A stretch of 64,000 bases of DNA. Source: Obrimoposthia wandeli (taxonomy: Eukaryota). Positions 42,559-64,000 of the stretch are shown here, in pieces (positions within the stretch are counted from its first letter, which is position 1; every line of letters begins with the position of its first letter). Where the stretch lies: positions 124,001 to 188,000 of the forward strand of contig CDROCS010002161.1 in assembly GCA_977020255.1 (NCBI GenBank), given 5' to 3'. The notes below the pieces were generated by a model that was not told the DNA's origin, ran no database searches, and was given only the letters and a program-made list of their open reading frames with translations. The translations under genes were made by a program, and so were the position numbers.

Positions 42559-42596
42559 AGTAGGTGTATGTGTCCGGTCTAATCCACACACCCCTT

Positions 42597-42678: not shown

Positions 42679-42713
42679 GTCCCAAACATTTTTTTCGCGC
42701 CTATTAGCGCGAA

Positions 42714-43080
42714 AGGCTCGGGACTGGTGTATATCACAGACTTCCTTGGGTGATGGCCGAAAGTCTCGGGACTCGTGTATATCACAGACTTCCTTGGGTG
42801 ATGGGGCGAAAGTCTCGGGACTGGTGTATATCACAGACTTCCTTGGGTGATGGGGCGAAAGTCTCGGTACTCGTGTATATCACAGACTTCCTTGGGTGAT
42901 GGGCGAAAGTCTCGGGACTCGTGTATATAACAGACTTCCTTGGGTGATGGGTGAAAGTCTCGGGACTCGTGTATATCATAGACTTCCTTGGGTGATGGGT
43001 GAAAGTCGACGGATGATGGGTGAAAGTCGTTGGGTGACGGGTGAAAGTCGTGGGTGACGGGTGAAAGTCGACGGGTGATG
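42714..43080 (+). repeat. Subterminal tandem array: ~6 x 48-49 bp, then ~4 x ~19 bp
   Basis: Unit aaagtctcgggactcgtgtatatcacagacttccttgggtgatgggg(cg), followed by gggtgaaagtcg..gtga units. Confidence 0.9.
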
Positions 43081-43275
43081 GGTGTTGGTTGGGGATTGTT
43101 GGTGACTACACATGTAGACGACCCGTGTCATACCCAAGATCCTAACATACACCACCCGCCCCTTCGGGGCGGGCTTCATTCTTGATCTCCAGGCACGAAA
43201 AACATTACAAAAAATAAATTATTTGAATAAGAGGCTCTCATTGGACAATAAAAGAGGGTTAGTAAGATGTTTGTG

Positions 43276-43284
43276 TATATAAAG
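43276..43284 (+). promoter_or_regulatory. TATA box of the first Polinton gene
   Basis: TATATAAAG ~35 nt upstream of ATG 43318. Confidence 0.4.
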
Positions 43285-43317
43285 ACACCTCCGTTCATTA
43301 TTTTTCATAAATCAACA

Positions 43318-45005: not shown

Positions 45006-45207
45006 TTTCATATGTTTTCTTCTTAATATTTTTTTTTTTTTTAATTTTAAATTTAGAAATACTATCTTTAAGTTTATTTGCAATGATAAGTTATAGATTT
45101 ATTAAACTCTCATTTGATAAATAAAAATATATCATTTAATTGGATTAAAATATATCTTAAATTTATATATATAGGTTCAAAATTATGAACCTCTTCATAA
45201 TTAAAAA

Positions 45208-45528
45208 ATGGAATTCATTAAAATGAAGAGTCTGGTAACGAAGATTGAAGCAAACATCAGAATAAATTAGAAGAAATGGTACTTAAGAAAGAGGGTCCTC
45301 AATCAGAATCTGTATGCTGCTGTCGCGACCGAGTGGAATCATCGGGTGGAGATACAAGATAGGAGGCTATCAGAACGACGTCGAATCGTGGAGTGTAATA
45401 AGAAGATCGAAATGGAAAAGAAGAAGGTGGATGAAAAAAGAAGAGAAGAGATGGAGGATAATCGTCGAGCAGCAAGAAAGAGAATCCTCCAGATAAAACC
45501 GGAAGAGGGTCCTTCTACAAAAAAATAA
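45208..45528 (+). pseudogene. Small charged coiled-coil Polinton ORF with one internal stop
   Basis: MEFIKMK...*...EIQDRRLSERRR...MEDNRRAARKRILQIKPEEGPSTKK. Homologous relic in copy A. Confidence 0.55.
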
Positions 45529-45691
45529 AATTTTGATTATTATTTTGTCTTTATTGATTATGTTACATAGGAGAATTGACAATATATACCAATCTTAACA
45601 TGAAAGATTGAATCCTGAGTACTTTGTTATTTTAATAAATTTTTGATTTTTTCGTTATAAACAACGGTATTTGCTGCAAATTTAGATAATT

Positions 45692-46180
45692 ATGCAGGAA
45701 TATATTATAGATTTTGAGGCTTTCATTAACAAAAATAGTGATTATATTATAAAAGAATTATGTATTATGGATGTATGCGACATTTTTCATCCTTTGCATT
45801 TCATATTTCAAATAGATATCCCGTTTAAAAGTTTAGATTATAAGAAAAAATTTACTAATTTATATCTAACTAATTACTTTCATTTATTAAAATGGAAAGA
45901 AGGACATAAGGCTTTTTGTGAAATATGTATTTTCGATACAATAACATCTAATTTTGATATAGAAAATGGAATTTTTTATGTTTTAGATGAAATGGATGGC
46001 AAAAAGTATAAGACTTTAAAAAAATATTTTCCTAAATTGAGATTGAATACTTTAAATATTTCACGTGATCATCTATTAAAAATTCCACGAAATATTTGCT
46101 GTCCATATCGTAATCATGGTGACCATTGCGCAGATGAAAAATGTTTAGGTCTATCTTATTATTACTTGACATGTAGATAA
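45692..46180 (+). CDS. Polinton-associated DEDD/DnaQ-like nuclease-fold protein
   Basis: N-terminal YIIDFEAF..YIIKEL (DxE motif); C-terminal CCPYRNHGDHCA, a Cys/His cluster seen in Polinton ORFs of this type. Confidence 0.55.
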   Translation: MQEYIIDFEAFINKNSDYIIKELCIMDVCDIFHPLHFIFQIDIPFKSLDYKKKFTNLYLTNYFHLLKWKEGHKAFCEICIFDTITSNFDIENGIFYVLDEMDGKKYKTLKKYFPKLRLNTLNISRDHLLKIPRNICCPYRNHGDHCADEKCLGLSYYYLTCR

Positions 46181-46349
46181 ACAATTCTTCTAATTCATAA
46201 TTTTCATTCAATTACAAATAATTCTTTTGATTGGAGAAATAAAAAATATTTTTTTCGACCATTTAACAGATAAACAATCCTTCTCAATTTTTTTAATCCA
46301 ATAGGAAAAGAGCATGTGTGCGTAAATTTTAGTTATAAGCAAACACTTT

Positions 46350-47386
46350 CTTCATTAAAATCCCCGACTATTTGAAATAATGACTATGATAAGAATCTAT
46401 ACTTATTATTTCATTATTAATATTTATTATTTCAGATTACTAGTTTATAGAAAAGAGAGAAACTGGAAGATACATTGGTTGATCTATACACATACCGACC
46501 GCGTCCCTATCTCTAGTTTCATTTTTAGATATCCATATTGTTCTCAAAAGTGGAACTCGCTGTCCTCCTACAAGCGTTGGTTCTATTAAATTAGTATAAA
46601 TATATAAATGAAAAACAGCATTTAAAAGTTTTGCCTTATTTTTAGCTTTTATGGTTTTTATTGTATGGGTTTCAAAGGTATTTCTGTTTAAACCAAGGTT
46701 TTTAGCGAGTTTATCATCAAATAAAACTCGTATTATATTGCTCTTTACTGTAAACGTTATTTTACCATTTTTTAATGTTACACATTTATCGAAATATTCA
46801 CTACATTCCTGTATTAATTTACATAAATTCACTTCACTATCTAATTTATAATCTTTTGAAAACATTTTCAGTTCCACTACATACTTTGGTCTCGTTTCAA
46901 CTAAAAACAGTTTTGTTACTCTATCAGGAACATTTTTAAACGATTTAGATGAGGTTATATCAGATCTCTTCATACCTACTACATGTCCACTGTCAAAACC
47001 GAATTGAAGAGCTTCTCTATCAGATCCAAATATAATTTGAATGGTTTTAAAAAATGTTTTAGTCTATTTTTAAATCTGACTTTGTTTTTTTCATATATTA
47101 CTTTCACTTCTTTATCTATACAATTGTAATAGAATTTTCCTTTACTATCAAACCCAATCACAACTTCAATTGATTTTTCATGATCAACTTCTTTTGTAAA
47201 CGAAATATGTGAGTTTTTTCTGATAGTAATTGGAGAATAATAAAAGGAAAATTATGTTAAAGCCGCTTCCCATTCTCCTTGGAGATTTATAGGATTTTCC
47301 CAATCGATAATAAAGCTACTAGCGTAATTATCTGGTTGAGTCTTTGGACATCCGTTACTAGGTAAAACCATATACATAGAATTCAT
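46350..47386 (-). pseudogene. Polinton minor capsid protein (penton)
   Basis: Starts MNSMYMVLPSN...NYASSF..NPINLQGEWEAAL and ends LYIYTNLIEPTLVGGQRVPLLRTI...QPMYLPV, the typical penton termini. Frameshifts and stops. Confidence 0.75.
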
Positions 47387-48412
47387 ATTATATTAGATGC
47401 TGATATCCAAGTTGGATCTGAATAACCATGCCATTTAACATAGTATTGTTTATGTTAACCGTCACCCTTAGATTTTAATATTTTTTGAATACGGAAAACG
47501 CTAGGTTTATTTGATATTACTTGTAGTTTTCGCTCGTAAAATTTACCGTGAACGATATAATTGTCAGCATCTTTAATAGTATACATTATTGGATTATTCT
47601 TTTGATCAATTTTACTTATACAAAATATTTCATCACTCCAATTCTGATCAAAGTTTTTAATAAATGGAGTAGAGCTAATTTTCGAAATTCGGACATATTC
47701 GTTTTTCTTATATTTAGCTTTTTTAATATTTTCTTTTTTATTCCTATTCATCCAAATATCCATAGAATTTTTATTAGTAACATCGACAGGTCTCATTCCC
47801 ATGAGAAATCTATGTTCAGATTGATTATAGGCATGTATTATTTTAGGTAAAACTTGGATCCATTTTTTATTTCCTTCTTTTGTGAAATACTTTTTTATTC
47901 GATCTCTTAAAGTACGATTAAATCTTTCTATTACTGCTGCTTTATACTGTGAAAACACAGAGTAGTGATTTATATTATTTTGTTTAAATAAAGATTGTAC
48001 TTGCTTATTATAAAATTCTTTTCCTAAATCAATTTGCACATTTTGTGAAATGTCCTCTTTTAATATTTCTTTAATGGCTTCAAGCATAGCTATTGAAGAC
48101 TTTGCTTTAACTGGAATTGCACGAGCAAACCTGCTAAATACATCAATACATGTTAAAATATATCAATATCCCTTATTAAAGGAAGAATATGGGATCATCT
48201 CCATCAAATCCATTTGCCATAAATTATTAGGGCCGCTGGTTTTTATAAGCTCTAGTTGGAAACCTTGTTCTCATCGGCTTGTTCAGACTGTAGGCTAACT
48301 GGTCACTCAGCCATTTCTGCGTTTTCTTGTTATTTTGTTTTGTTCTTTTTGATAATTTTGAAACTCCGGTGTAGCCAATTGGATCTTTTGGATTGAACCA
48401 TATCTTCTCCAT
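47383..48412 (-). pseudogene. Polinton retroviral-like (rve) integrase with C-terminal chromodomain
   Basis: NLWQMDL, YILTCIDVFSRFA (D1), QIDLGKEFYN (D2), KAAVIERFNRTL (E), FYERKLQ, YYVKWHGYSDPTW (chromo). Its stop overlaps the penton ATG (ATGA). Confidence 0.9.
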
Positions 48413-48498
48413 TACAACAATTTGAATAGAAAGAAAATTTAAATTTAGGTAAAGAAGGGTTAGCACCCATATCTTTAACTGATTTTATAAATAATTGT

Positions 48499-48828
48499 TT
48501 ATGAACGTGTTGCAGCTATAATACTACTGATATTTGAAGCAACAACTGGAATAACAGCCCCTATGAAACCACCATTCTGTTTAAGAATAATATTTCGTTT
48601 CCTTTTTTTACTTTTTACATTAGCAATATCTAGAAGAGTTTTTCTATATTTCTTTAATATAATTTTCCGATTTCCAACTTTTACTCGACCCAAAACTATA
48701 TTATACAAAACTTCCAATAAATCATCTACAACAAAAGATGGAAATGCTTTAAGAATAATCATTCTCTTATGAGAACAGGCTTTGACTAAAGCATTTAAAT
48801 AGGGTATGCTTCTTTGTATTTTCTTCAT
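48499..48828 (-). CDS. Small basic Polinton protein with QNGGFIG motif (putative core protein / adenain substrate)
   Basis: Lys/Arg-rich 109 aa. KQNGGF followed by a hydrophobic tail resembles the xxGG cleavage motif of adenovirus-type proteases. Confidence 0.6.
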   Translation of the reverse strand: MKKIQRSIPYLNALVKACSHKRMIILKAFPSFVVDDLLEVLYNIVLGRVKVGNRKIILKKYRKTLLDIANVKSKKRKRNIILKQNGGFIGAVIPVVASNISSIIAATRS

Positions 48829-48859
48829 TTTAATAAAAAAGGTTCAATTTGAATAATGT

Positions 48860-49000
48860 TTATATTCGAAGCCATTTAAGTTTTTTTTTATTTCTAACTA
48901 CAGATTTGATTAATTTTTTCACTTCTTTTTTCTTAATGATTCTTTTTATTGATTTCTTAGGATTTGCTTTACGTTTTACTATAAACTTCTTAAAAGGCAT
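48860..49000 (-). CDS. 46-aa Lys-rich ORF (putative DNA-condensing core protein), below ORF-track threshold
   Basis: MPFKKFIVKRKANPKKSIKRIIKKKEVKKLIKSVVRNKKKLKWLRI*, between the ATPase and the GGF ORF, same strand. Confidence 0.45.
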   Translation of the reverse strand: MPFKKFIVKRKANPKKSIKRIIKKKEVKKLIKSVVRNKKKLKWLRI

Positions 49001-49049
49001 TATAAATTTATCTTTTATGATTGTTATCTATTTGTTTATAAACAGTTAC

Positions 49050-49664
49050 TCCCTTAGAATTAAATATATGGGTTAAAACACGTAAATCATCTTGGCAAGC
49101 TTGTGTAAAGTCAATAAATATATACCCATGTGCTTGTTTAGCAGCATCGTGGAATGAATCAACTAGAAAGTTCTTATTTTAGGGAAATGCCTGTCTGGCC
49201 ACAAAATCAACAACTGTTTGATCTCTAGGATTTTTAAATAAAACTAAGTAATGCACATTAAAATTTCTAGTTCTATGGTGACCTCCTTGGTGAAAAGGAT
49301 TTTGAGTGATAAATATAACTGTTACTTCACGATGTCTTGCAATCTCGTAAATAAATTATTAAAGTCCGATTCCTTGTTAGCTTCCTGATACAAATCATCA
49401 ATTATTTTTACATCTTCTTTTTTCAATCTTTCCCACCAATTTGCATCAAATCCTTCTGTTGGGGTTTCTATATGAAACTTATAGATCCTCTTGAATGTGG
49501 AGGGCCCCAACGTGAGTTCTTATAGAAGCAGGACTTAAGGATGGTTGTGGCCTACTTAATGTTATAGTTGCCTGTCTCAATTCTTATCTGAAAGTGTTTG
49601 TTTTCCGATGTCTTTTAATCTGAAGGGTTTAGAACAACGCTTTCTAATGTAGGAAATCGTTTAT
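49050..49664 (-). pseudogene. Polinton FtsK/A32-like packaging ATPase
   Basis: Degenerate Walker A (VVLNPSD*KT), Walker B IIDDL, NLFTR-(fs)-RHREVTVIFITQN, HYLVLFKNPRD, RQAFP, HGYIFIDF. Confidence 0.85.
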
Positions 49665-49818
49665 TGTTAACACACTAAACTAGCACAAAGCAATACGTTT
49701 ACGTACGTATTTCTAAAAAGTTACAGTAAATTCCTAAGACTTCTGTAAGTCTCTACACAAGTGGGGATGAACCACGTATCGATTCTAATTTAGGTTTGGT
49801 TAATTTCGTAGAGTCTTT

Positions 49819-50430
49819 ATATGGGCAATTCAAGTTATTCAAAATTTCACGATTTACTTTAAACTCTTTCAATATAGGCAATTCAAGTTATTCAAAATTT
49901 CACGATTTACTTTAAACTCTTTCAATATAGGCAATTCAAGTTATTCAAAATTTCACGATTTACTTTAAACTCTTTCAATATAGGCAATTAAAGTTATTCA
50001 AAATTTCACGATTTACTTTAAACTCTTTCAATATAGGCAATTCAAGTTATTCAAAATTTCACGATTTACTTTAAACTCTTTCAATATAGGCAATTCAAGT
50101 TATTCAAAATTTCACGATTTACTTTAAACTCTTTCAATATAGGCAATTCAAGTTATTCAAAATTTCACGATTTACTTTAAACTCTTTCAATATAGGCAAT
50201 TCAAGTTATTCAAAATTTCACGATTTACTTTAAACTCTTTCAATATAGGCAATTCAAGTTATTCAAAATTTCACGATTTACTTTAAACTCTTTCAATATA
50301 GTCAATTCAAATTATTCAAAATTTCACGATTTACTTTAAACTCTTTCAATATAGGCAATTCAATTTCACAATTTACTTTAAATCAATATATGACAATTCA
50401 CTTTCACAATTTACTTTAAATCAATATATG
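49819..50430 (+). repeat. 53-bp tandem array (~10 near-identical copies) plus two degenerate ~38-bp units
   Basis: Unit gcaattcaagttattcaaaatttcacgatttactttaaactctttcaatatag at 49825, 49878, 49931 ... 50302. Confidence 0.95.
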
Positions 50431-51448
50431 ACAATTCACTTTCACAGTTTTACTTTGAATTGTTATACTTCTTACACGAAATGGAAAGCCGTCCGTTGTT
50501 CGATTCGCAAGAGTCCTGGTATCAGTGGTGCTGCTCGCGCTGCGTATGAGATTGAGAGCCGTTCGATCCTTCCTGGCTTGGCTCCGACTTGTCTGAGGGC
50601 GCGATTCGATTTTGTGTTGTCTTCTTCTTATCGACTTATATTCTGGCTATTCTTGTTTGTTTCTGGCCATTTATATAAGTCCAATTTTCCTCCATATCCG
50701 CCCCTCCTCGAGTGATAAGTGCTTCTAATTGATTCCTGTCTGCACTTGCTCAGCAGGCTCGGCTGCTCGCCTTCTCAGTTCCTAGAATGATCTAAAACAG
50801 AGCACTTAACAAAAGCACTTACTTGTAGACAGCCGTCCAAGTTCCCTGTGCGGCTCTGTACAGTAATGGATTATTGCTGGATTTCTTCTTAATTGAGTGA
50901 CTGACTCAACTCTCCAAAATGAGTTAATTAATTCCTTAAATTCGTTTAATTTGGACTTTCTTAACCGGCTAATTCTGTTTTTTGGGGCCCTTTTTGTTAA
51001 CGTTAACTTCTATAAATACTTACACATCACACACGACCTTCGTGGTCCCTAAATATTTTATTACAATTTTAATCTCATCAATTTCAATTTTGATATTAAA
51101 TTTATCTAATTCTAACCTTGCTTTCAAGGATTTCTATTTCACTATAAAATCAATTAATTATTTAATTTATTTCAAAACCTAAACCTAACATATCTCGGGG
51201 GTTCTAAAAAAGTTACGTCCCCGGAACGTATCGATTAAATTTACTAGCCTCTGGACTACTGATTTTAAATCATCCCCACTAATTTCAATCATTCAAAACT
51301 CATCAACATGTCTAATGTTCAACAAAATTCGGAACTACTGCCAAGATAGTGAATAAATCGGACGAAGTCACAAATATTCACTACATATATTATACACAAG
51401 TGTTTTAGAAAAGGAAAGGGGCAGGAAAGGATGAAATGTAACGTTTTA

Positions 51449-51978
51449 TCAGTTGTCGCAGGTGAGGTCAATTGTTACTGTTGGCTGGTTCCGACTGTCC
51501 AAATAGAGCATGACCTGCTCCAGGGGTAGGTCTGAGAAGGACGGAATGTCCCCGAGGAGTAGGTCCATCTGCTGGAACGGGGTCAGGTGTGGGCTCTCGA
51601 CAAATAGATCGAAATCCTGCCCGTACAGCTCATTGTTCTCTATCCATAACCGTCTGGCCTGTTGCCATGAACGGCAGTCGCGGCTAGACCGCCACCGTTC
51701 GCGGATGCCAATTTGCACATCGCGACGGCGCGCGAGGCACACCGAGCATTGGCAATGCTCGCCACCAATGCAACTGGTGGGTGAGTGGGTGCCCTTGGGT
51801 CGTCCACGGCACTGGAGCGTCCACTCGGAAAAGGGTACCGGCACATCGGGCATGTGATGTGGCCGGGGGGTCGAGCCTTGGCCCACAAATAGAGGCAGGA
51901 CTCGTGGAATTTGTGCCGGCACCCGGCAGGGGAAGCCGACTCTGCCCAGATTTTCTCGAGGCAAATTGAGCAAAGCAT
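51449..51978 (-). CDS. RING-H2 E3 ligase-like protein 3, with a -1-frame C-terminus (Cys cluster + SIM-like TIDLT)
   Basis: CSIC..CRHKFH..C..CPMC in ORF 51640-51978. The Cys cluster shared with the other two RING ORFs (C....HCQCSVC..RR) lies in ORF 51449-52012, the -1 frame after CCCTTTT. Confidence 0.75.
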
Positions 51979-52269
51979 CTGCGCAATAATTACTCTTTAA
52001 TTTGGGGTTCAATTGGGTCTAATATTAATTTATGAATTTAATATTTTAATTTTAATATTATAAGCCTTAGCATTTAATCCTACCGAATTCTGCTCTGATT
52101 TTAGGCATGTTTCTCACATTCATACTAAGCATAAAAATGGTAATGGTCATTTTACAGTTTCACAAGATTATACAATTATGATTACAATTATGGTAGCTAA
52201 TTTATCGCGGTATGCGATACACAGGGGTAGTTCATGATGTCACGTTTTAAGTCAGAAAGTTACCTTCGG

Positions 52270-52575
52270 TTACTGCTGGCTGTTGGGCTGGCCTGCGCGT
52301 CGCTCCTCTACGCAGAACGAACACCAGCAGTCGCAGATGTTTTTCCAGCAGTGTACAATGGGTACCACTGCTTGGAGGCTGTCCCGGTTGTAGACATAGT
52401 GCACCGAGAAGGTTGCTCTGCACATCGGGTAGTTTGGGTAGTCGAGGGGATTGTTGTTGTTGGCGATTGGGATCCATGTCTCGAGGCATTCGACGTGGAA
52501 CTGGTGGTCGCAGTTGTTGGGTTTGGTGTAGAGGTCCACGATGTTCTCGTAGCAGATTGAACATTCTCCAGACAT
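52270..52575 (-). CDS. RING-H2 protein 2 (7th ligand Cys->Tyr)
   Basis: CSIC-x11-CDHQFH..C...NYPMCRATF; C-terminal HCWKNICDCWCSFC..ERR. Confidence 0.8.
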   Translation of the reverse strand: MSGECSICYENIVDLYTKPNNCDHQFHVECLETWIPIANNNNPLDYPNYPMCRATFSVHYVYNRDSLQAVVPIVHCWKNICDCWCSFCVEERRAGQPNSQQ

Positions 52576-52635
52576 TACTGTGAGAGGGTTGATGTTGAAT
52601 TTGGGCTCGATTGAGGGCTGATGGTTTTGTGATGT

Positions 52636-52935
52636 TTACACAAAAGTGGTCGGATTTTGTCGTTCTGACAGACAGTAATAACACCAACATTCTCTCAAAT
52701 TCTTCCAACAGAATATCACTTGTACATCTACATCCTCTTGGTTGGTTTCTATTCTGATTAACCTTGTGAATTGTCTTCTGCATACAGGGCAACGAGGGTA
52801 TGTTGGATAGGGAGTTTCTCCATATGTTCTGATCCATTTTGATAAACATTCCTCGTGGTGTAAGTGGTTGCAGGTATCGGGTCTTGTTCTTCGTTCGGTT
52901 AAATCTTCGAAACATATTGGGCATTCTTCGGACAT
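52636..52935 (-). CDS. RING-H2 protein 1
   Basis: CPIC..CNHLHH..C..CPVCRRQF; C-terminal FCWKNLRECWCYYCLSER. Confidence 0.85.
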   Translation of the reverse strand: MSEECPICFEDLTERRTRPDTCNHLHHEECLSKWIRTYGETPYPTYPRCPVCRRQFTRLIRIETNQEDVDVQVIFCWKNLRECWCYYCLSERQNPTTFV

Positions 52936-53046
52936 TCTAAATACATGATGACAATTAATTTCTACACGAGTTTTACATATTTCTACTTATTTGTACAATC
53001 ACTTCTAAATATTTCTACATATTTTTTACACACTAATTTATCTACA

Positions 53047-53055
53047 ATCTCCTCT
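53047..53055 (-). promoter_or_regulatory. Candidate polypurine tract
   Basis: AGAGGAGAT on the minus strand, 6 nt after the stop of the 791-aa ORF and directly before TGTAGA. Confidence 0.45.
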
Positions 53056-53061
53056 GACTTA

Positions 53062-55437
53062 TCATGTCTTGATGGGAGGCGGAGGTAAGGGTCGCAATTC
53101 CACTTCCTCCATTGTGGGTGTGTTACAGCATCGCAGTCCTTCGCATTTCCGTCGTATTCTTGGGCATACCTGACAGCCTTTCACGCACACGACTGTCAAG
53201 AGAACTACTGCTGTTGACACTACTGCCATTCCAATTAGAGCATTGACCGCTGTTATTCCGCTGTCCGATGATTGGTAATCATACTTCATTTTGTTGTTTG
53301 TCGGTTTGAATGGCGTTTCCATTGGTGTTGATCGGTTTCCATGTATTATGTCCGATTTTCTAATAACTCGCGGATTTGGATATTTTGTTTTCGGTCTAAC
53401 AGGTATTATTAATTGAGATTGGAAATGATATTTGGGATCTAGTGGAATCGTTCCCTTCACTCTTGTCCTCTTAATAATTGTACTTTGGTTTCTGGGATCG
53501 AGCTCTTTTCCTTTCACTTCTGCCTTTGTTATGATTACTTTTGGCTTCTCGGAATGGCGTTTACTTCCGTTTACCTTTGCCTTCTTTTTGACTATGATTG
53601 GTTTTTTGGAGTAGCGTTTACTTCCTTTCACCTTTTCATTTTTTATGACTATGATTGGTTTTCCGGGAATGATTTTCCTGGGTTTGATATTTATACTGAG
53701 TCCACGAAATCGACGTGTCTGGTATCTTAGAGTTATGTAGTATATTTCACCTGTTATTAATATGATTATGGTAGAGGTCTCTCTAGCATTGCTGGGAATT
53801 CGGTTACATAGACATTCTGTATCAAAATGTGGTACTAACATTTGGTTTTGAATTTCAAATCTGATTCCACCATCTGGATTGGGACACGACACTGTTACTT
53901 TGTCAGTTTCTAACAATCTGAAGAATAATCTAACGGAATTCCATACGGTTTTACGTCGTCTACCTGTGATCATAATCCTGTCGACAACTTTCCAGATGTG
54001 CTCGTCGTTAGGCAATATTAATGACTTTGTTCGGATAAATTGAATAATCCGTTTCCTTTTTGATATTGTTATTCGTAGGTATAATACATTTTCATGGTAG
54101 AATAATATCAGTCGGTAGTAAAGTTTGTGTTGGTCAATCTTTATTTTGATCTGGCGAATGACATACGATTTCTGATCGACATTTTCGGTTGCTGATGTTT
54201 GTAGGTGAATGTCTATTACGTAATTTGCTTTTATTAGAGGTATTTTTATGGATAACGCCCGTATCGTATCTTGTCTCCATTTACTGATCATGATCTCATA
54301 ACCAGCCTCGGTCGTGGTGATTTGCATGATCAGCATGATTCCTATGATCGTCTGGTTCCTAATCTCAGGAACATCTCTAGGATAACTCAAGTTACTCATG
54401 TAGTATGGTTTTTCCTCGATATGTTCGTATATCGTTGGCTGATACTCTGGTGCTGGTTCATTTAGGAATGCTGGTCTTGGTATCATTGTGTTGAATTTTT
54501 GTAAATTCATTTGACCTGCTTGTCTTGCGAGATCATGACGTTTCTTTTTCGATCTCAACTCTATCTTTGTACAACAAAACAAAATGAGCAATATTATTAT
54601 TATGACTCCGATAGTCAATGCTAGTATTGGATTAACCAATTCTAGAATACCATAACGTATTGCTGGTATCCCTTTACTCTTGATGGTTAATATTTTAAAT
54701 TTATGTGTACTTTGGTTGGACATGTCACTGAGAAGTACTATTTTAGTTTGTCCAAATGTGTATCCTTCACATGTGACAACACTAATTCCATAATGTCCAT
54801 TTAGTGTTTCCATTTCGGTCGCTGGGATTACACATATTCGTCCTGGACATCCTTTCACACACATGATCATCACGGCTTTACTATAAGACGTCTTGATTAT
54901 TTCTAGGGTGTTGTCTAGATTTCTCAGATGTAGATTATATCCAGGTAGCGTCATCAATTCAGCTTTACTGGTTGGAATGGCTTGTAGTACCAATCCAATT
55001 ACTACTCTGTAGATCAATCCTTGTGTAACAGTGCACAGGGCCTTGATTGTCCTTTTGCAAAGGGTTTTGATTATTATTCGTTTGAGAGACATCTGTTTCT
55101 GGTTAGGTCGTTTTGTCTGGTTTGTCTGTCGTTGCTTTGACATTTCTTCAATTCCAGTTTTCCTGATAATCAACTGTACCTGTTTTCCTTGTATCATCAA
55201 CTTTCCGAATCCATTTTTGGCGGACAAGCATGTTTTATGTCCTTCCATCGTTTCGATTATCACTCTCTTACTTCCATACTCACGTGTTTTGATGACATCG
55301 CCGTCGAATATGTACGTCGTACCTTTTGTATCCGCATCTTTTTGTATTTCCTTTACAATTCGTTTTCTTTGCCTGCATCCTGTGAACATTGCTGATATTC
55401 TATCAAGTGTGCGTTGTCGGTCAGCTTCATAATCCAT
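53062..55437 (-). CDS. 791-aa multi-segment membrane protein in the env position (not a recognised env class)
   Basis: Hydrophobic segments VVIGLVLQAIPTSKA, LALTIGVIIIILLILFCC, IIGIMLIMQITTTEA and ALIGMAVVSTAVVLLTVVCV. Cys-containing ~105-aa segment between the first two; basic KVKGSKR repeats. Confidence 0.7.
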   Translation of the reverse strand: MDYEADRQRTLDRISAMFTGCRQRKRIVKEIQKDADTKGTTYIFDGDVIKTREYGSKRVIIETMEGHKTCLSAKNGFGKLMIQGKQVQLIIRKTGIEEMSKQRQTNQTKRPNQKQMSLKRIIIKTLCKRTIKALCTVTQGLIYRVVIGLVLQAIPTSKAELMTLPGYNLHLRNLDNTLEIIKTSYSKAVMIMCVKGCPGRICVIPATEMETLNGHYGISVVTCEGYTFGQTKIVLLSDMSNQSTHKFKILTIKSKGIPAIRYGILELVNPILALTIGVIIIILLILFCCTKIELRSKKKRHDLARQAGQMNLQKFNTMIPRPAFLNEPAPEYQPTIYEHIEEKPYYMSNLSYPRDVPEIRNQTIIGIMLIMQITTTEAGYEIMISKWRQDTIRALSIKIPLIKANYVIDIHLQTSATENVDQKSYVIRQIKIKIDQHKLYYRLILFYHENVLYLRITISKRKRIIQFIRTKSLILPNDEHIWKVVDRIMITGRRRKTVWNSVRLFFRLLETDKVTVSCPNPDGGIRFEIQNQMLVPHFDTECLCNRIPSNARETSTIIILITGEIYYITLRYQTRRFRGLSINIKPRKIIPGKPIIVIKNEKVKGSKRYSKKPIIVKKKAKVNGSKRHSEKPKVIITKAEVKGKELDPRNQSTIIKRTRVKGTIPLDPKYHFQSQLIIPVRPKTKYPNPRVIRKSDIIHGNRSTPMETPFKPTNNKMKYDYQSSDSGITAVNALIGMAVVSTAVVLLTVVCVKGCQVCPRIRRKCEGLRCCNTPTMEEVELRPLPPPPIKT

Positions 55438-55680
55438 TCAGAATTGATTCAGTAGTCGGTTTTGTGGATAAAATATTGCTTCATTCACTATGTTATCCTC
55501 GATCCTTTCGTCTAAATACACAAGTACTTGGTTTGTTGGTCCATTTGGTCTCTTCATCTTTACAAACTGGAATCTTTTACTATCGGTTCTCATAGATCGG
55601 AGACATTTTCGGATAAGCCAAACATCAATTAGTCCTATCAACACTAATAGCATCATCAGTGCCGGTGTATTGTACTGCAT
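55438..55680 (-). CDS. 80-aa ORF with N-terminal hydrophobic segment
   Basis: ALMMLLVLIGLIDVWLIRK. Same frame as both flanking large ORFs; its stop abuts the next ATG (TGAATG). Confidence 0.5.
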   Translation of the reverse strand: MQYNTPALMMLLVLIGLIDVWLIRKCLRSMRTDSKRFQFVKMKRPNGPTNQVLVYLDERIEDNIVNEAIFYPQNRLLNQF

Positions 55681-55737
55681 GATTTAGTTGTTGATTTCTT
55701 TGAACCATGAACTATTTCCGTGGTTGGAGCCTATCTC

Positions 55738-58700
55738 TTATGCTCCCGTTATCGGCATTAGACAACTTAACAAGCCTAGTGCTAGCAATCTTTGGTATTG
55801 ATAGCTGGGCACTGATGTTGTAGCTTCATTTGTTTCTCGTTGTTGCTTCCTCTTTTCGGAGTATTTCTCTATTTCTCGAACGAGTAACGGTTTGAATTCC
55901 GTATCTGGTCTATTCTGTTTGGTGTAGACCATCGCTTCCTCTGGTGTATGACCATGGTACTCTACCAACAAGGATACACCTATGGTAGGCGCTAACATTG
56001 TACCTTTTTTCTGATATATCAGAACGCCGTTTCCTTCTGTGACTTCGGCTTGGATGGTTTGAGTCAGTTTCATCAGATGTTGTTGTGCATCGTTTATCTC
56101 CCGATTGGAAGCATGTATGTATCGAGTTGTGTCATCTTCAGTATTTTGACACAGGCTGATTATTTCATTTCCGACTTCAACAATGTTAATTACTCGGTTG
56201 ATACTGTGGAACTTTAATCCAGCAGTATCTATATCTCCTGGATGACATAGAAATACTTTCGGCATTATCTGAGTAATTTTGTCGACTCCGGCTAAGAATA
56301 AACCGGTCAACGATAGTGATTGGAGGAAATTCTTTTCCTTTGGATCCTCAGGGATGTCATCCATCCGTCTCTGTTCTTGCAACAGGAGTTGGTAATTTGA
56401 CAATTGTCCCAAAAAATTAAGGTTTGGGTTCGCGATACTTCGTTTTTCCTGTAGGTATTTCAGCGCTTCTAGTACCTGCATTCGTCTAGTCTTTATTAGA
56501 TATGCTAATACTAGGGTTGCTGATCGGGAGATTCCTTTCTGACAATGTACCAACACTTTTCCTTGGTTTTGGAGTTCTCTGTGAAGTATCTCGTTTGTTT
56601 CTACGAACCATTCGAGAAGATTAGCCTCCATTGAGTCTTTTACTCTTAATGTCATAGCTCTGATAGTCTGATATTGTGATTTGTGATTCATTGTAACATT
56701 GATCACGTATGTTATCCCTTGTTCCAACAGTTTCTTTTCGTCTGTTGCATCTTCCACATTTCCGAGGTATAACTTATCTGGAATGATCTCACTCATTGGT
56801 GGCATTAATTCTGACTCTTCAAGTTTTAGTCTTTCTAATCTCTTCTCTAGTTGTTCGTCGACGATGGATAATTTCGCCAGTTTCCTTCCTCTCAGCATTC
56901 GTATCGCTGGAGAGATATTCGTCTTTGTCTCTGATGTCTGTTCCTTTGTTGGTTCCTCTTCCGACTCAGTCTCTTCTGCGGATTTAATTCGTCTTTCTTG
57001 TATATTATGTTTCACGAATTCTATGATTCGTCTTTTTCTACTCTCTTTAGCTAATTCAACCTCCATGGTTCTTCCGAAACGCTCTATTATGTTATCTTCG
57101 GATTCTGTTGACTCTGGATCGCTACTTTCAAGTTCGCTATCTTGACTAGACTCGCTCGAAGGGTATTCTGGTATGTCTGTCTGAACTGAAATTAATGAAG
57201 GGGTTAGAATAATTGGATTGACTGGTCCTGCGTGTCTGAGAATCGGATACGGTATTTCACTATCCTTAAGTATCTCAACTTGGAACTGTGCTCCATAGCA
57301 CATGACAATTGTTTCCAATTTACCCATGATGGACAATCCATCAAAATAGGTGACACTCAGCTTAGATATCGGTGTTTTCGCATAATTAACTAAATGGACT
57401 CGTATCTCGGTTGATGACGGCCATCGATTTTTTAGTAAAATTATAATTTCGTCCTTTATCGATGTAATCACACTTGGCGCGGATGATACTATTTCAGCAT
57501 GATATTTTGGTTTGATTGAGGTTGTCACTTGTTCTCGGATCATATTGATTCGTTGTGGTTTATTTTTAGCTTCCCACTTCCGGTATCCGCTGTCAATGCG
57601 TAACTCTGCCGTTGCTTTAATGATTTTATTGTTTGTTATTTCTGGTTGGGTTGGCGAATGAAATACTTCTATTACGCTCAACCTTACAGATACTTCCGTT
57701 TGATCTGTGTTTAATTGGTGAGATTCCGGTATACTACATACAATGGTCTTTCCGTCAAAGTATTTGGTGTCCATCTGACATATTATCTTTTCAGTGTCAG
57801 CGTCGATTAAATGAACTCTCATTATGTCTCTTCTCCCATGTGAATTACGTAATACCATTATTACATCGTGGTATTCTTGTTTGAGTCTTTTTAGTGTACC
57901 ATGAAGTATGTGACCACCGGTCGGTTCTTTTTCTTCCTGACTGGCTAGTCCTGCTTCAGTACTGTCATAGTTCTGCCATGCAACTATGTTTGGTGTTAAT
58001 GTGATTTCGATTATCACTTTCTCAGTTGTAAACACATTGGAGTTTAGATGCAGTTCTGCAACTAGTGTATTTCCGTCGAAGTATGACACTCTAAGTTCGC
58101 ATAGAAATTCGTTTGTCAGTGCATCTTTCACAATGACTTCTTTCGCCACATCTGTTGGTTGTGTTTTTTCGAAAACGACTATGATCTCTTCGTTTTCTTC
58201 CAATATCTCTTGTGGTGCGATGTGTCTGATCTTTTCTTTTTCCTCTTGGTGCTTCATTCTGAGCATGCCAATTCTTGCTGGTTTTTTCTCGTTACCACTT
58301 GTCATCGTATTTATGTAGTTTCGATCACTTACCATTCGTGTAAGTTTAATGGTATTGGTATTCGGCTTCAATTTCTGTGATCTTAGCTCATATCGTGACG
58401 CATTATCTTTATTCGGTACTAGTTTACATCGATTCGCATGTACAATCATTGGTTCCTTGTTCCGGTTCTCCTCGTTGATTACTTTCAAGTTCGTTGAGAT
58501 TGTCTGTATCACCTTGTATGGTCCTTTGTATGGTCTATGAAGTTTAAACGATAGACCTGGTTCGATGACTGGATAAAATATCATCACTTGATCTCCGACT
58601 CTAAATTCAAGTGGTTTTGCCTTTTTGTCATATTGTTCCTTGTAACCTTCTTGATTGAATTTCAGTTTCAATCCTGCTTTAGTCCAAGCATCTTGTAATC

Positions 58701-59511
58701 TTTCTTTCATAACGACAATGTATTGTTCAGTTTCTAGATACTGAGATGTTGGTTCAGTCCACTCCAGATCCATTGGCATATTGTTCTGTCTGAGATACAT
58801 CAGATAGAATGGTGTGTGACCCGTCGCCTCTCGAACTGAATTCCTGTAAGCATATAAACATGAAGATAAATATTTATCCCAATCCTCTGAGCAATAGGAT
58901 TGTACCATCATACATAAAGTTTTATTAAACCTTTCTACTAGACCATCGGTTTGTGGGTGATATGGTGAAGTTTGTAACTTCATGATTCCGAATATCTTCG
59001 ATACTGCTTTTATTACTTCTCCGGTGAAGTTCTTACCTTGATCCGTTAACAACTTTCTAGGCACTCCGTATCGAAATATTATATCTTCCACTAAGATCTG
59101 CGCTATTGTTTCAGCCTTCTGGTTTTGCATGGGATATGCTTCTACCCATCTCGTCATGTAGTCCGTAAATACTATGACGTACTTGTTTCCTTTACCTGAT
59201 TCTCTCAATAGTCCCAATATATCCATCGCTGTGAATTCCATTGGTGCCAAAGGAACTGGCATTGGTTTCAGTGGAACTTTAGTACGAGTTCCAGTGTCTT
59301 TTCTGGTTAAACATACTTTACATTGTTTACACCATTGTTTTATGTCGTCTTCCATACCATCCCAATGGTACTTCTCTTTGATTCTGGCTATTGTCTTTCG
59401 TCCTGACAGATGTCCTCCTAGTGTTCCATCGTGATACTGGATCATCACTGCTGTTTTCAATGACTTCGGAATTACTACTACTATCTTTCCGACATTGTTG
59501 ACAATATACAA
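55738..59511 (-). CDS. Ty3/gypsy integrase fused to 3 x YFDG domain, dual-specificity phosphatase, pseudophosphatase and a hydrophobic C-terminus
   Basis: H..GGH...C..C zinc finger, AMDILG / TDQGKNF / TDGLVERFN (DDE), YKGPYKV (GPY/F). DSP core LYLGN...VLVHCQKGISRSAT...NPNLNF; second DSP-fold copy with VLIYQKKGTMLA. Confidence 0.92.
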   Translation of the reverse strand: MYIVNNVGKIVVVIPKSLKTAVMIQYHDGTLGGHLSGRKTIARIKEKYHWDGMEDDIKQWCKQCKVCLTRKDTGTRTKVPLKPMPVPLAPMEFTAMDILGLLRESGKGNKYVIVFTDYMTRWVEAYPMQNQKAETIAQILVEDIIFRYGVPRKLLTDQGKNFTGEVIKAVSKIFGIMKLQTSPYHPQTDGLVERFNKTLCMMVQSYCSEDWDKYLSSCLYAYRNSVREATGHTPFYLMYLRQNNMPMDLEWTEPTSQYLETEQYIVVMKERLQDAWTKAGLKLKFNQEGYKEQYDKKAKPLEFRVGDQVMIFYPVIEPGLSFKLHRPYKGPYKVIQTISTNLKVINEENRNKEPMIVHANRCKLVPNKDNASRYELRSQKLKPNTNTIKLTRMVSDRNYINTMTSGNEKKPARIGMLRMKHQEEKEKIRHIAPQEILEENEEIIVVFEKTQPTDVAKEVIVKDALTNEFLCELRVSYFDGNTLVAELHLNSNVFTTEKVIIEITLTPNIVAWQNYDSTEAGLASQEEKEPTGGHILHGTLKRLKQEYHDVIMVLRNSHGRRDIMRVHLIDADTEKIICQMDTKYFDGKTIVCSIPESHQLNTDQTEVSVRLSVIEVFHSPTQPEITNNKIIKATAELRIDSGYRKWEAKNKPQRINMIREQVTTSIKPKYHAEIVSSAPSVITSIKDEIIILLKNRWPSSTEIRVHLVNYAKTPISKLSVTYFDGLSIMGKLETIVMCYGAQFQVEILKDSEIPYPILRHAGPVNPIILTPSLISVQTDIPEYPSSESSQDSELESSDPESTESEDNIIERFGRTMEVELAKESRKRRIIEFVKHNIQERRIKSAEETESEEEPTKEQTSETKTNISPAIRMLRGRKLAKLSIVDEQLEKRLERLKLEESELMPPMSEIIPDKLYLGNVEDATDEKKLLEQGITYVINVTMNHKSQYQTIRAMTLRVKDSMEANLLEWFVETNEILHRELQNQGKVLVHCQKGISRSATLVLAYLIKTRRMQVLEALKYLQEKRSIANPNLNFLGQLSNYQLLLQEQRRMDDIPEDPKEKNFLQSLSLTGLFLAGVDKITQIMPKVFLCHPGDIDTAGLKFHSINRVINIVEVGNEIISLCQNTEDDTTRYIHASNREINDAQQHLMKLTQTIQAEVTEGNGVLIYQKKGTMLAPTIGVSLLVEYHGHTPEEAMVYTKQNRPDTEFKPLLVREIEKYSEKRKQQRETNEATTSVPSYQYQRLLALGLLSCLMPITGA

Positions 59512-60310
59512 GATTTCTTATTTTATCGAGTATTTTTTTCATCATTTCATCATTTAGATCTCCTTTCACTAACAATTCTTTGATTAGACTCAGTTCTTCA
59601 TCTTCTTTCTGTTCCTTTATGATTTCTTTGTCTATTTTACCCGTCTTCAGCAAAATCGTTAGTAGATTTGCATCTCCTTTTTGGTCGTTGGTTTCATCTT
59701 CTTCTGGAATTATGTTTCCTTTCTCGTCTACATTTGTCAACCTCGACAAACAGTCTGCGTTGCCATTCGACTTTCCGGTTCTATAACGGATTTCTAGATA
59801 GAATTCGGCCAATTTCAGAAACCATCTGTTTAATCTACTCATCTCGTCTCTATGTTTATACAAGAACTGTAGTGGTTTGTGGTCTGTATACAGGAATACC
59901 TTTTGTCCTAGCAAGTATTGTCTGTACTGTCTACATGAATATACTATGGCTAGACATTCCTTTTCGATGACAGAGTATCCTCTTTCGGCTCTGTTTAATC
60001 CTCTACTCGCATACGCGAAGACGTGTTCTCTTCCTTCGTCATCCTCTTGTCCCAATACTGCTCCTACAGCATAGTTACTTGCATCTGTCATTAGTATGAA
60101 TTGTCGGTTTATATCTGGAAACGCTAATATTGGTGCTTTTATCAGTCTTTCTTTTAAATGCTCGAACGCTTGTTGTGTTTCTTTTCCCCATATGAACTTC
60201 TCATCTTTTCTCGTCAACTTTTTCAATGGTGTTGCTATATCTGAAAAATGTTCAACAAATCGTCTATAATAGTTCGGAAGACCTAAAAAACTCTGTATTT
60301 CCTTAACAGT
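59327..60310 (-). pseudogene. RT connection and RNase H of the Ty3/gypsy pol (disrupted)
   Basis: VKEIQSFLG, ILMTDASNYAVGAVLGQ, YSVIEKECLA, YTDHKPL, YRTGKSNGNADCLSR. TAG at 60311-13 and a frameshift near 59535. Confidence 0.92.
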
Positions 60311-61540
60311 CTATGGCGCTAAATGCGCTTTTACTTTCTCGATCTTTGCTGGATCAGGTCGAATACCTTCTTTCGATACTATATGTCCTAAAAATGTTAC
60401 TCGCTCTTTAGCCCATTCGCATTTTGTAGGTTTAACTTTTAATTTAGCGTTTTCCAGTCTTTTAAATACAACTTCAAGATTTTTTAAATGTTCTTCGAAC
60501 GTCTTCGAAAATATTATTATGTCATCGATATAAACCATCGTGTTTGCACACGATGCGAGTACAAAATTCATGCAACGCTGAAATGTTGCTGGTGCTCCTG
60601 TCAGTCCGAATGGCATTTTTTCGCATTCGTATAGTCAATCTCCGCAGGAAAAGGCTGTTTTGTGTTTATCCTCTTCCTCTATCTCGATTTGCCAGTATCC
60701 ACTCTGCAAATCCAATGTCGTGAAATAATCTGAATTACCTAATTTATCAAGCATCTCTTCAATTCTAGGTAATGGATACACATCTTTTCTTGTGATCTTG
60801 TTCAGTTCTCTGAAATCTATACAGAATCTTATTTTTACATCCTTCTTTTTAACCAACACCATAGGTGCTGAGAATGGTGAAAAATTCGGTCTAATTACTC
60901 CTGTTTTAGACATATCTTCAATCTGACTTTTTACTTCATCTTGTAACTGTAATGGTACTCGATATGGTCTTCTTCTGACTACTTTGTCTTCTGTCAGCGG
61001 TATTGTGTGTTTTATGACAGGTGTTTCTCCTATGTCATATGGATTTTTTGCAATTACTTTTGGAAATTTATGTATTAGATCAAGTAATTGTTTCTTTTCT
61101 CTAGTTGTCAGTCTTTCTGATTGGATTACTATTTCTTCGTAATCATTCGTGTCTTTATCGAGTTTCATAGCACACACAGTGGGATTCTCCATCTGTGCTA
61201 TCTTTCCCAACCTCATTCCTCTGTATAACAGGACGTCGTTGTTGGTTGTATTCATCAGTCTAACTGGTATTTTGTGGTTTTCAATCAGATATACTGTACT
61301 CACAATTGGTAATTCATATTTTTCTATGAAATCCCGTGATGGTTCGAACACAACTGGTCCTTTATCTTCTGATAATGTGTGGCCTTGAATAAGAAATTGT
61401 GATCTTTTACCGATTTTTATAGGATTTTCTATAATTACATCAATTTGATTTATCTGTCTGTTTGACGTACTATCTTTCAATCTTGGATCTTGTAAATCGA
61501 TACTTATCACTTTGAGTTGTGATAGTACATCCATTCCCAA
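60311..61540 (-). pseudogene. Reverse transcriptase of the Ty3/gypsy pol (one in-frame TGA)
   Basis: RRRPYRVP, FCIDFRELN, YPLPRI, LDLQSGYWQI, TAF...MPFGL, YIDDII. TGA at 60635-37. Confidence 0.95.
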
Positions 61541-61623
61541 ATTGTAGGTTCAGGACATTCTTTCATGATTCTAACTGGTATAGTGATCGTATTACGTCCA
61601 ATTATAAATGTACATGGTAATAT

Positions 61624-62330
61624 TCACGTCACTTTTACAGGGTCTCCGTTGACCGATACCAAGAATTCATCTGGTTCTGCCATTGTTCGTTTCTGTTCCT
61701 CTGTCAAACAATCTTCACTTACTATCGAAGCTACAGCACCTGTATCAATTAAGGCTTTTACTCTTAAATTATTTACTCTAATGATAGCTGCTGGTCGCTG
61801 TGCTCCATTTATATTTCCCATATGGTATATTGTATTTATTGAGTTATTAAATTCTGTCTGTCCACTTCCTTTGTTTGGATAGTGAAATCTAATATTTCTC
61901 ACTTTTCGATCTATTATCCTTCTACAAATCGGACATGATACCATTTCCTTCGCACATCTCCGACATGTTCTCACATGTCCGCATGGTAAAAAGGCAACTT
62001 CTATTTTGTTGACCATGCAAACTGCGCATTCCGGATCTTCTAGTACGTATTCTAGTTCGTTTATGTACTCTTTCTCTTTTGTTTCAATTGTACTGTCATC
62101 TTTATCTTTTAGTAATTCAAAAATTGATCCGTATCCGTTTCGCGTAGTTTTTATTTTTAATTCTACCAAATCTATGATTCTTTCTGCTTCTTTTGGATAT
62201 AGTCTTCTCACGAATGACACTACCGGTGTGTCTTGTTGAGCCAAAATCTCTTTCCGTGTGATTTGGTATTCGATTATACATTCGGTTTTTTCTGTTCTTT
62301 TTGCTTTATTTTGTTTTTAAAAATACAAAA
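61624..62330 (-). CDS. IAP-type RING finger directly followed by retropepsin protease
   Basis: CAVCMVNKIEVAFLPCGHVRTCRRCAKEMVSCPICR (C3HC4, IAP/MDM2 type), then VKALIDTGAVASIV. Frame open upstream to ~62330. Confidence 0.9.
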
Positions 62331-63163
62331 TTCGCAAAATTCATGATGTAAAGTTTTCTTAGGCAACTCGAGAGTATATCTGTCTTTGATTCGTTCTTTT
62401 TTACACTTGTGGCATTTAATCACGTCTTTACCATCCTTTTTATAGCAAAAAGTCCCTTTTTTGCCAATTTTTTAAGTCTTGGATCTTTGAAAGTTACTTC
62501 TCGATATTGTTCGTCACATTCGTTTACTTCTCGCATTACTTCGAATATGTCCTCAATTTGACTGTTTGTTATCACTCTGCCTACTATTAAAGCTGATTCT
62601 CCTTCTGGAATCTCATCACTGTTATCGAAATCGGGTGCTTTCCCCCTTTGAATTTCTGGTACGTTTGAAGTTTTCAGTTTCAAAAGGAATGGACAATTTG
62701 GTGCATCTCTTTTATGACGTTTCATTGGGTTTTCATTGTTTTCCCAATTTCTAAATTTTACTCTACACCATACGCATCGTACTACTCTCTCAGAACCATA
62801 ACTATTTGTCGTGTCTAACATTTGCAACCCTGTTCTCGCCATTTTACGTGACATTTCTTTTGAATAGTACGGTTCTAGTGATCTTCGTCTATTTCTCTCG
62901 AATCTAAGAGGATCTCTTTCTAATAGATTCACATATGTTATTTTCCTCCTCGTCGTAGTTTGTAGTTCGTCGTCTACTCCTTTGTAGTGAAGTATCGACT
63001 TTACTAGCACTTCCTGTTTCCTGTTTTGGTACGGATTTCCCATACGGAACATAGTGTATTTTTCCTTTTCAACTATAGGTCCTCTCAACATTTTTATCTC
63101 TCTCACTGAACTGTCGTTCTTAAAACTCTTGTTGTTTGGTAATATTATTATTCCTTCAAACAT
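62330..63163 (-). CDS. BIR domain(s) of an IAP module in the retroelement polyprotein
   Basis: BIR1 has the exact C-x2-C-x16-H-x6-C spacing (CVWC...H-KRDAPN-CPFL). A second, degenerate BIR (LAKKGLF..[fs]..DVIKCHKC...HHEFCEF) spans a frameshift at ~62435. Confidence 0.85.
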
Positions 63164-63231
63164 TCGTATTACTCCATTCCAATCATGACTGGACTACCAC
63201 AATCTGTGAATATTCTAGCATTTAACTGCAA

Positions 63232-64000
63232 TGTATTATTCAACTTTACAATACCTCGTTTATACTATTATATATAGTTGAGTTATTACATTAGTTATGT
63301 TAGCCTCTGATACGTGTACTATTAACAGAGTAGAACTCACTGAGGGTTATAGGCTAAATAATGACACTAACTATACACTAAAATGTGAAATATACAAGTA
63401 TAAAAGTGGGAAATTAATAATTTGTTATTGTACTGTGCATCGACACTGTCGATTGGGTCGGACCGATGCTAAGATAGTCATCAGTGAAAATTTACTAAAA
63501 ATGTAATAGATACGATGATGAGATATTTGGTCTAAATAATTGAATGCTCACTTCAAACTAAGGTATTAGTAACGAATGAAAATTACACATAAATATTTGA
63601 ATTTGGTTTAAAAAACAAAAAAATTGCATAAATTTTGTCAAGGAACTTTTGAAAACTATTCTTTCTTAGAAGAAAAAAGATTCACAGAGTCTTAAAAATT
63701 CGTTCAAAGCATAATGTAGTTTTATTCCAGAAAGATTCAGCAGATGAAATGTATATTCGAAATTACTCAGATAGTTAGCTTTAAACGTTGCCCCAAGAAA
63801 TTTTATTATTTAAACAATGACAACGAAAAATGATTGTTATTTCCCAATCCAATTTCATTTCCATTTTGCCATATATTTCTATTGACTAAGTCAAGAAATA
63901 GACTTTTATGACATTTGTTTATGTAGTATTCACTAGACACGTGTGTATTTCATGTAATGGCGTACCGAAGGCATATTGGATTCGGAAGATGGCTTCAAAT
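63232..64000 (+). repeat. Third partial copy of the duplicated segment
   Basis: Matches 32156-~33215 and 41212-~42260, with an internal deletion of ~290 bp. Confidence 0.9.

Follow-up and report, generated by a model that had tools for sequence, protein, structure and literature searches.

A decayed Burro-like Ty3/gypsy retroelement in Obrimoposthia wandeli with selected host-control-like cargo and a probable exchange of genes with Polintons

The stretch of DNA analysed here, referred to as the window, covers 64,000 nucleotides of the Obrimoposthia wandeli genome (assembly GCA_977020255.1, contig CDROCS010002161.1, positions 124,001 to 188,000). Within it lies a decayed copy of a Burro-like Ty3/gypsy long terminal repeat (LTR) retroelement that has been very active in the recent past. 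We consider it probable that this Burro-like element encodes one giant polyprotein with conserved host-control-like cargo, and that its IAP gene, and likely also its phosphatase gene, were exchanged with Polintons residing in the same genome. Much of the headline of the first-pass annotation, a model's reading of the letters that had described a giant retroelement with a DNA-virus-like host-control toolkit, is already in print (PMC6431247). What is new is the cargo set and the evidence of gene sharing with Polintons, in a Burro-like family that is real and under selection.

One polyprotein in a selected family

The window holds only the 3' half of the element, and the structure of the whole was read from neighbouring DNA and six other copies. 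Total length is about 24 kb (23.4 kb in copy C2634; about 25 kb in copy C636, including a related 2.2-kb LTR nested in its gag). The Ty3/gypsy criteria are present, namely the order protease, reverse transcriptase, RNase H, integrase (PR-RT-RH-IN), LTRs, a primer binding site and target site duplications. The LTRs measure 1.7-2.4 kb or more across copies, and the primer binding site is complementary to the 3' end of genomic tRNA-Met genes. Among eight copies the 4-bp target duplications are exact in three, match at three of four positions in one and are unreadable in four.

A single polyprotein spans about 5,460 codons and is ordered as Gag, CCHC, a ubiquitin-like region, a weak BCL2-like region, Env, protease, IAP, protease, reverse transcriptase, RNase H, integrase, three YFDG repeats, phosphatase, pseudophosphatase and membrane tail, after which come three open reading frames (ORFs) encoding RING-H2 proteins. 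One natural copy has an open frame of 4,633 aa running from the CCHC to the pseudo-dual-specificity phosphatase (pseudo-DSP), and in copies C3158 and C2634 the frame continues from the dual-specificity phosphatase (DSP) into the membrane tail. The membrane proteins, which had been taken for separate products in the first-pass annotation, are therefore pieces of one frame. Its proposal of a giant, multi-copy gypsy lineage is borne out, and the local mosaic that it had named as counting against its reading, in which no other copy would share the domain order, is contradicted: the order is kept in 10/10 copies, with all 20 segments in five of them. The lineage, suggested to be possibly infectious, does possess an envelope gene, which lies outside the window, in frame between gag and pol, and encodes a Monjiviricetes-type fusion glycoprotein (PF24664, E 1e-59). 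One CCHC knuckle was found (E 4e-6).

Several parts of the polyprotein are conserved across copies. The DTG motifs of both proteases are kept in 27/28 copies, and the 140-aa linker between protease and reverse transcriptase has a dN/dS of 0.05 with no domain match found. Pfam recognises a BIR (E 2.5e-12) and an IAP-type RING in the window copy. RING ORF3 is a single frame in 13 of the 17 copies having both ends; it is about 60% identical between subfamilies, which keep the RING and a terminal I/V-D-L-T/I motif that is present in all 14 alignments reaching the end and resembles the consensus of SUMO-interacting motifs (SIMs). The YFDG repeat had no homologue among 1.84 billion representatives. 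For its fold the ESM atlas gave TIG at 0.85-0.90 with low recognition scores, AlphaFold models had pLDDT values of 49 and 36, and a Foldseek search with these low-confidence models returned nothing at E<=0.001; a TIG/IPT-like fold may be taken as a lead only. The membrane tail has no Pfam family above cut-off and no database homologue. Within the tail, at positions 54560-54620, two cysteines and a basic run come after a transmembrane segment; this region weakly matches the reovirus p10 fusion protein (E 0.0036, below cut-off), and tyrosine/proline-rich motifs lie on the cytoplasmic side.

The family is abundant. Probing the 1.35-Gb assembly with 1 kb of cargo produced 3,768 first-look candidates, the 40 scored being 98-100% identical, and an LTR-end probe gave 2,533. 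Across 20 arbitrarily chosen stretches the family accounts for 26,958 of 194,303 bases and is present in seven; the stretches are few and lie near contig starts, so this figure is rough. Paired LTRs, compared over their last 355 nt, are 97.5% identical in the window copy and 98.3-99.4% identical in six others, which suggests recent activity. An older subfamily (L364), with 62-80% protein identity, also carries DSP and pseudo-DSP.

Selection was measured as dN/dS from variants common to at least two copies, using 33 de-duplicated copies and 21 segments, a per-domain analysis that the first-pass annotation had proposed. Values were 0.03-0.12 for pol, 0.15 for Env, 0.25 for IAP, 0.14 for YFDG, 0.16 for DSP, 0.05 for pseudo-DSP, 0.19-0.38 for the tail and 0.13-0.39 for the RING ORFs (ORF2 0.13, ORF1 0.39). 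Bootstrap intervals were below 1 in all 21 segments, and eight stops were shared between copies against 133 private ones. Private variants also gave values below 1 (0.22-0.72), and the counting of sites ignores transition bias. All cargo was under purifying selection (dN/dS 0.05-0.39).

Genes in common with Polintons

The IAP provides one link between the retroelement and the Polintons. Control stretches of the assembly contain Polintons with IAP and DSP genes beside TBP-like and ATPase genes, and 28 of the top 30 loci matching the Pfam BIR are in Polinton context, the other two being host-like. The retroelement IAP scores 119-131 bits in its RING half and 61-74 bits in its BIR half against four Polinton IAPs, versus at most 60 and 48 bits against 13 cellular IAPs and two host BIRs. 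The alignment extends outside the BIR and RING to the N-flank, the linker and the C-terminal end. In a maximum-likelihood tree four retroelement and four Polinton IAPs fall on one side of a branch with support 100/99. The only host BIRs found are of two types, which from their domain layouts we take to be survivin-like and Bruce-like. No other cargo segment matched in the Polinton loci examined, and viral contigs contained nothing that matched the Polinton IAP.

A motif search returned 13 host DSP loci, one of which, on contig C934, matches as three exons of an intron-containing gene. This spliced host gene is the best match of the retroelement DSP (112 bits versus 94 for human DUSP10), and the phosphatase was likely captured from the host. 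The first-pass annotation had likened the cargo to a hallmark set of large DNA viruses that includes a VH1-like phosphatase. A VH1 or baculovirus origin was rejected, since no viral VH1 chain occurs among 59 PDB hits at E<=1e-10 and DUSP10 is the top hit. The Polinton DSP has the retroelement DSP as its own best match, at 62 bits, versus at most 36 bits to eight host DSPs and 38 bits to PDB chains. At all 25 Polinton DSP loci examined a TBP-like gene and an IAP RING adjoin, at 23 of them an ATPase also, and the catalytic arginine is absent from the DSP in 25/25. Judged from these sequence relationships, gene exchange between the retroelement and Polinton classes is the best reading.

The wider model is put forward tentatively, as possible rather than probable. 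A giant enveloped retroelement and double-stranded DNA Polintons of one animal genome would share a pool of host-control genes; the DSP would have passed from a spliced host mRNA to the retroelement and on to a Polinton pseudophosphatase, a complete IAP would have crossed between the classes, and a slot following the integrase would hold an orphan TIG-like repeat and ICP0-like RING-SIM ligases. On the main reading, genomic RNA would be translated as one polyprotein. The two proteases, together with host signal peptidase acting at internal hydrophobic segments, would then cut it into Gag, Env, Pol, IAP, phosphatases and membrane proteins, all in equal amounts. The RING ORFs would require separate expression. 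The IAP, with the BCL2-like region, may delay caspase death of the producing cell, the MKP-like phosphatase may damp stress-MAPK signalling, and RING ORF3, combining RING and SIM, may act like a SUMO-targeted ligase that ubiquitylates SUMOylated repressors. The outcome would be a producing cell kept alive and an element kept transcribed. Transfer of the phosphatase from host mRNA, then to the Polinton with loss of the catalytic arginine, is likely, and the IAP could have moved in either direction. According to the available text of PMC8532177, planarian PIWI silences LTR elements and Polintons and both are desilenced during differentiation, so that differentiating cells offer a plausible setting for exchange.

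When genes have moved between reverse-transcribing elements and DNA viruses, the evidence usually comes from inference over deep time. Here a putative donor, intermediate and recipient occur in one genome at high copy number, so that direction and timing become testable through sister species. The family adds population-level evidence of selection maintaining every cargo domain, and would extend the proposed targets of Burro-type elements to MAPK signalling and SUMO-dependent silencing.

The window copy and its surroundings

The features of the window copy are collected in Table 1. All domains listed in the first-pass annotation lie on the minus strand in the order it gave, forming a co-oriented unit, and its estimate that over half of the coding capacity is non-canonical holds (about 2,500 of 3,700 aa, from hand-assigned lengths). 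The stops and frameshifts that it had noted in pol were likewise confirmed: aligning natural ORFs of four other copies to the window copy located four stops between the second protease and the integrase (61626, 60637, 60313 and 59520) and frameshifts near 61540 and 59535. The cargo ORFs, which had been called intact, are not. In the tail, stops lie at 55740, 55686 and 55440, positions at which the frame of other natural copies stays open, the IAP and RING ORF3 are frameshifted and RING ORF2 lacks one zinc ligand. The bounds given for the element (49665..63230) need correcting as well, for its true end is 49457 and about 13 kb more lies outside the window, past a 4.9-kb insertion at 63232. That outer part comprises Env, the first protease, the ubiquitin-like region, Gag, the tRNA-Met primer binding site and a truncated 5' LTR, and the segment 62650-63232 occurs a second time beyond the insertion.

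Table 1. Features of the retroelement copy and adjoining DNA in the window
Feature	Position	Strand	Remarks
End of first aspartic protease	63011..63231	-	
IAP module: BIR, degenerate second BIR, linker, RING	61880..63010	-	homologous along its length to Polinton IAP genes; frameshifted in window copy
Second aspartic protease (DTG at 61746) and PR-RT linker	61031..61850	-	linker lies where Burro has its dUTPase-like region
Reverse transcriptase (YIDD at 60532) and RNase H	59521..61030	-	two stops
Integrase (H2C2, rve, C-terminal)	58400..59520	-	
Three ~100-aa beta-rich YFDG repeats	57181..58260	-	23-26% identical to first; motifs at 58083, 57762, 57348
Dual-specificity phosphatase, intact HCQKGISR loop, MKP-like	56388..56772	-	DSPc E 3.6e-40; DUSP10 E 6e-26
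Pseudo-DSP without catalytic Cys/Arg (IYQKK)	55831..56301	-	DSPc E 1.3e-5; IYQKK in 26/26 readable copies
Membrane tail: hydrophobic segments alternating with ectodomain-like regions	53062..55800	-	predicted from hydropathy to yield about three membrane proteins
RING ORF1 (RING-H2, 99 aa), paralogue of ORF2	52636..52935	-	E 5.6e-10; ORF1/ORF2 34-39% identical
RING ORF2 (RING-H2, 101 aa)	52270..52575	-	one zinc ligand lost in window copy
RING ORF3: N-terminal RING-H2, acidic C-terminus ending in SIM-like TIDLT	51449..51978	-	zf-RING_2 E 2.5e-8
3' LTR (TGTT...AACA), 1.7 kb	49457..51190	-	last 355 nt 97.5% identical to truncated 5' LTR
53-bp tandem array within 3' LTR	49819-50460		
Start of 4.9-kb non-coding repeat inserted in element	63232..64000	.	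97% match to window 32818-37308
Polinton-like element, retroelement inserted in its TBP-like/ATPase region	42559..49456	-	rve and pX matches; same gene order in other Polintons

The 3' flank of the retroelement is a Polinton ATPase/pX/integrase block. The first-pass annotation had seen in this nesting a route for cargo exchange; genes common to the retroelement and Polintons do exist, and the nesting itself is at chance level and gives no evidence. Targeting of Polintons was rejected, since only one of 17 LTR flanks, that of the window copy itself, matched Polinton proteins, versus 31 of 116 control pieces (30 LTR-end loci were taken, of which seven were dropped because the anchor motif was missing and six were 5' LTRs). 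The control pieces, each of 1.5 kb, come from 20 stretches (L061-L080), nine of which have matches; for an animal genome, Polintons are unusually abundant here. A TBP-like gene adjoins the Polinton ATPase at L076:6892-7221, L064 and L072, and beyond the window at L012 (Pfam TBP E 1.7e-12), and the presence of IAP and DSP beside it varies among at least three Polinton families. At 42597-42678 two Polinton ends appear to be joined head to head in an 82-bp near-perfect palindrome, after which comes a 48-bp tandem array. An intronless 520-aa ORF at 5177-6739, about 2 kb away from a fragment of a Polinton polymerase, encodes a divergent protein kinase domain (E 5e-25) and may be a host retrogene or cargo.

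Directly 5' of the 3' LTR (51190-51230) there is no obvious polypurine tract; a short motif of G-run, T-run and C-run is kept there in five copies. Elsewhere in the assembly tRNA-Met genes form a tandem array with a spacing of about 284 bp (L302, G000:C2252; 39 pattern matches, with 7/7 in a scanned stretch called tRNA-Met), and their 3' end matches the primer site of the element. The multi-copy COX1 of the assembly has AAA at conserved Asn and ATA at conserved Ile positions, the flatworm/echinoderm mitochondrial code. Taken with the Burro-like elements and the A+T-rich window, this code points to a flatworm host, probably a planarian. The assembly also includes foreign contigs, as seen from numerous COX1 genes of bacterial type and an animal COX1 (L300) that uses another mitochondrial code.

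Alternatives and known systems

In an independent capture, retroelement and Polintons would each have acquired IAP and DSP from one set of host genes without passing them to each other. Two observations would suit it: the retroelement DSP scores higher against the host gene (112 bits) than against the Polinton DSP (61-67 bits), and the DSP tree leaves the pairing of retroelement and Polinton unsettled. The available text of PMC8502044 reports IAP and Bcl2 homologues in adintovirus-type Polintons, and intron-containing host genes are hard to find in this assembly. We nevertheless regard independent capture as rather improbable, since the IAPs align beyond the BIR and RING, only survivin-like and Bruce-like host BIRs turned up, and the Polinton DSP scores almost twice as high with the retroelement DSP as with any host DSP tested. 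A window copy broken throughout might prompt the idea that the cargo is a passenger or a functionless local mosaic, but the constant domain order, and a 62-80%-identity subfamily that retains DSP and pseudo-DSP, speak against it, and the shared-variant intervals largely refute it, leaving it a very slight chance. Exchange within a selected, Burro-like family stays the favoured explanation, and the following count against it. The stem of the IAP tree is long (1.39), with no flatworm BIR-RING IAP as outgroup; no host BIR-RING IAP was found in a weak search that scored 76 of 17,145 candidates, and a canonical-BIR search, also weak, gave one match alongside one control match. The retroelement BIR is divergent (47.6 bits) and may not bind caspases. 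The clade of retroelement and Polinton DSPs is unsupported (57/0, long branch), and the DSP figures are biased, since 21 of the 33 copies had been chosen for their top DSP scores. Both the ubiquitin-like match upstream of Env (E 0.004-0.006) and the Bcl-2 match at the expected position (E 0.11) are below the Pfam cut-off, and the Gag-like region has no Pfam or PDB gag match. We infer the anti-apoptotic, anti-kinase and anti-SUMO roles from sequence.

It is unlikely, though less so than independent capture, that the element has already been described, with phosphatases and RING ORFs of Burro-2/3/4 or another planarian Burro noted in Grohme et al. 2018 or Repbase and only the Polinton link being new. 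The host has the flatworm/echinoderm mitochondrial code, and a match to an already characterised family, which the first-pass annotation had named as counting against its reading, was found for the core: Burro/GYPSM1 agrees in domain order, single ORF of about 5,000 aa, in-frame Env, BIR, LTR tandem repeats and thousands of copies (PMC6431247). However, section 7 of that paper does not contain the word phosphatase and names RING only within the AIR1 motif, and the tail has no database homologue. A literature search that did not extend to the figures and supplements of Grohme 2018, which possibly list further Burro domains, found no paper with this tail or with cargo sharing between retroelements and Polintons.

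Burro/GYPSM1 elements, known from dugesiid planarians, are gypsy-like LTR retrotransposons of giant size (Jurka 2007 and Grohme 2018, cited in PMC6431247). Section 7 of PMC6431247 describes an ORF of 4,873-5,140 aa with Gag, SUMO-like, BCL2, in-frame Env, BIR and Pol, and lists the domains MATH, Smc, ankyrin, BIR, BCL2, SUMO-like, dUTPase-like and midasin, of which MATH, Smc and ankyrin are features of S. mediterranea Burro1 and variable between species. Burro was proposed there to be a provirus meddling with apoptosis and ubiquitination. The window element likewise has a mononegavirus-related Env between gag and pol, a BIR and PR-RT-RH-IN, and a flatworm host; upstream of Env it has a Gag-like region with a CCHC and, in the expected order, candidate ubiquitin/SUMO-like and BCL2-like regions. 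It differs in length (about 24 kb versus >30 kb), in the single CCHC found rather than two or three, in the two proteases that flank the IAP, and in the absence of Pfam matches to MATH, Smc or ankyrin in the ORFs scanned; its BCL2-like region has no PDB match. The post-integrase tail and the three RING-H2 ORFs are unlisted in PMC6431247. The comparison was with Burro's published description only, and we call the element Burro-like rather than an assigned member.

Among metagenome proteins, P0010 is the sister of the window element in an RT-RH tree (63% identity, SH-aLRT 100) and has a post-integrase membrane tail, and P0008 has an integrase, an extra protease, ankyrin repeats and membrane segments. 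The tails of both differ from that of the window element, showing no sequence similarity and no DSP or YFDG, and the post-integrase region is therefore a variable cargo slot. Cargo segments were found in none of 65 metagenome RT loci. Other metagenome gypsy elements (L229, L231, L240, L244 and L245) have a third ORF of >1,000 aa with ricin-type beta-trefoil lectin domains. A recent paper reportedly describes an anti-apoptotic Burro1 protein in planarian stem cells.

The combination of IAP, phosphatase and RING ligase with a SIM-like motif has what we take to be a functional parallel in baculovirus IAP, PTP and IE2/PE38 and in herpesvirus ICP0. The sequences give no sign of a baculovirus origin, the DSP being MKP-like and probably host-derived and the RINGs of H2 type. 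Adintovirus-type Polintons/Mavericks resemble the window element in combining IAP homologues with captured cargo, as described in the available portions of PMC8502044 and PMC10680173; the Polintons of this genome carry an IAP, a TBP-like gene and a DSP beside the ATPase. These portions report no cargo shared with LTR retroelements, and 'phosphatase' has 0 occurrences in the available text of PMC8502044.

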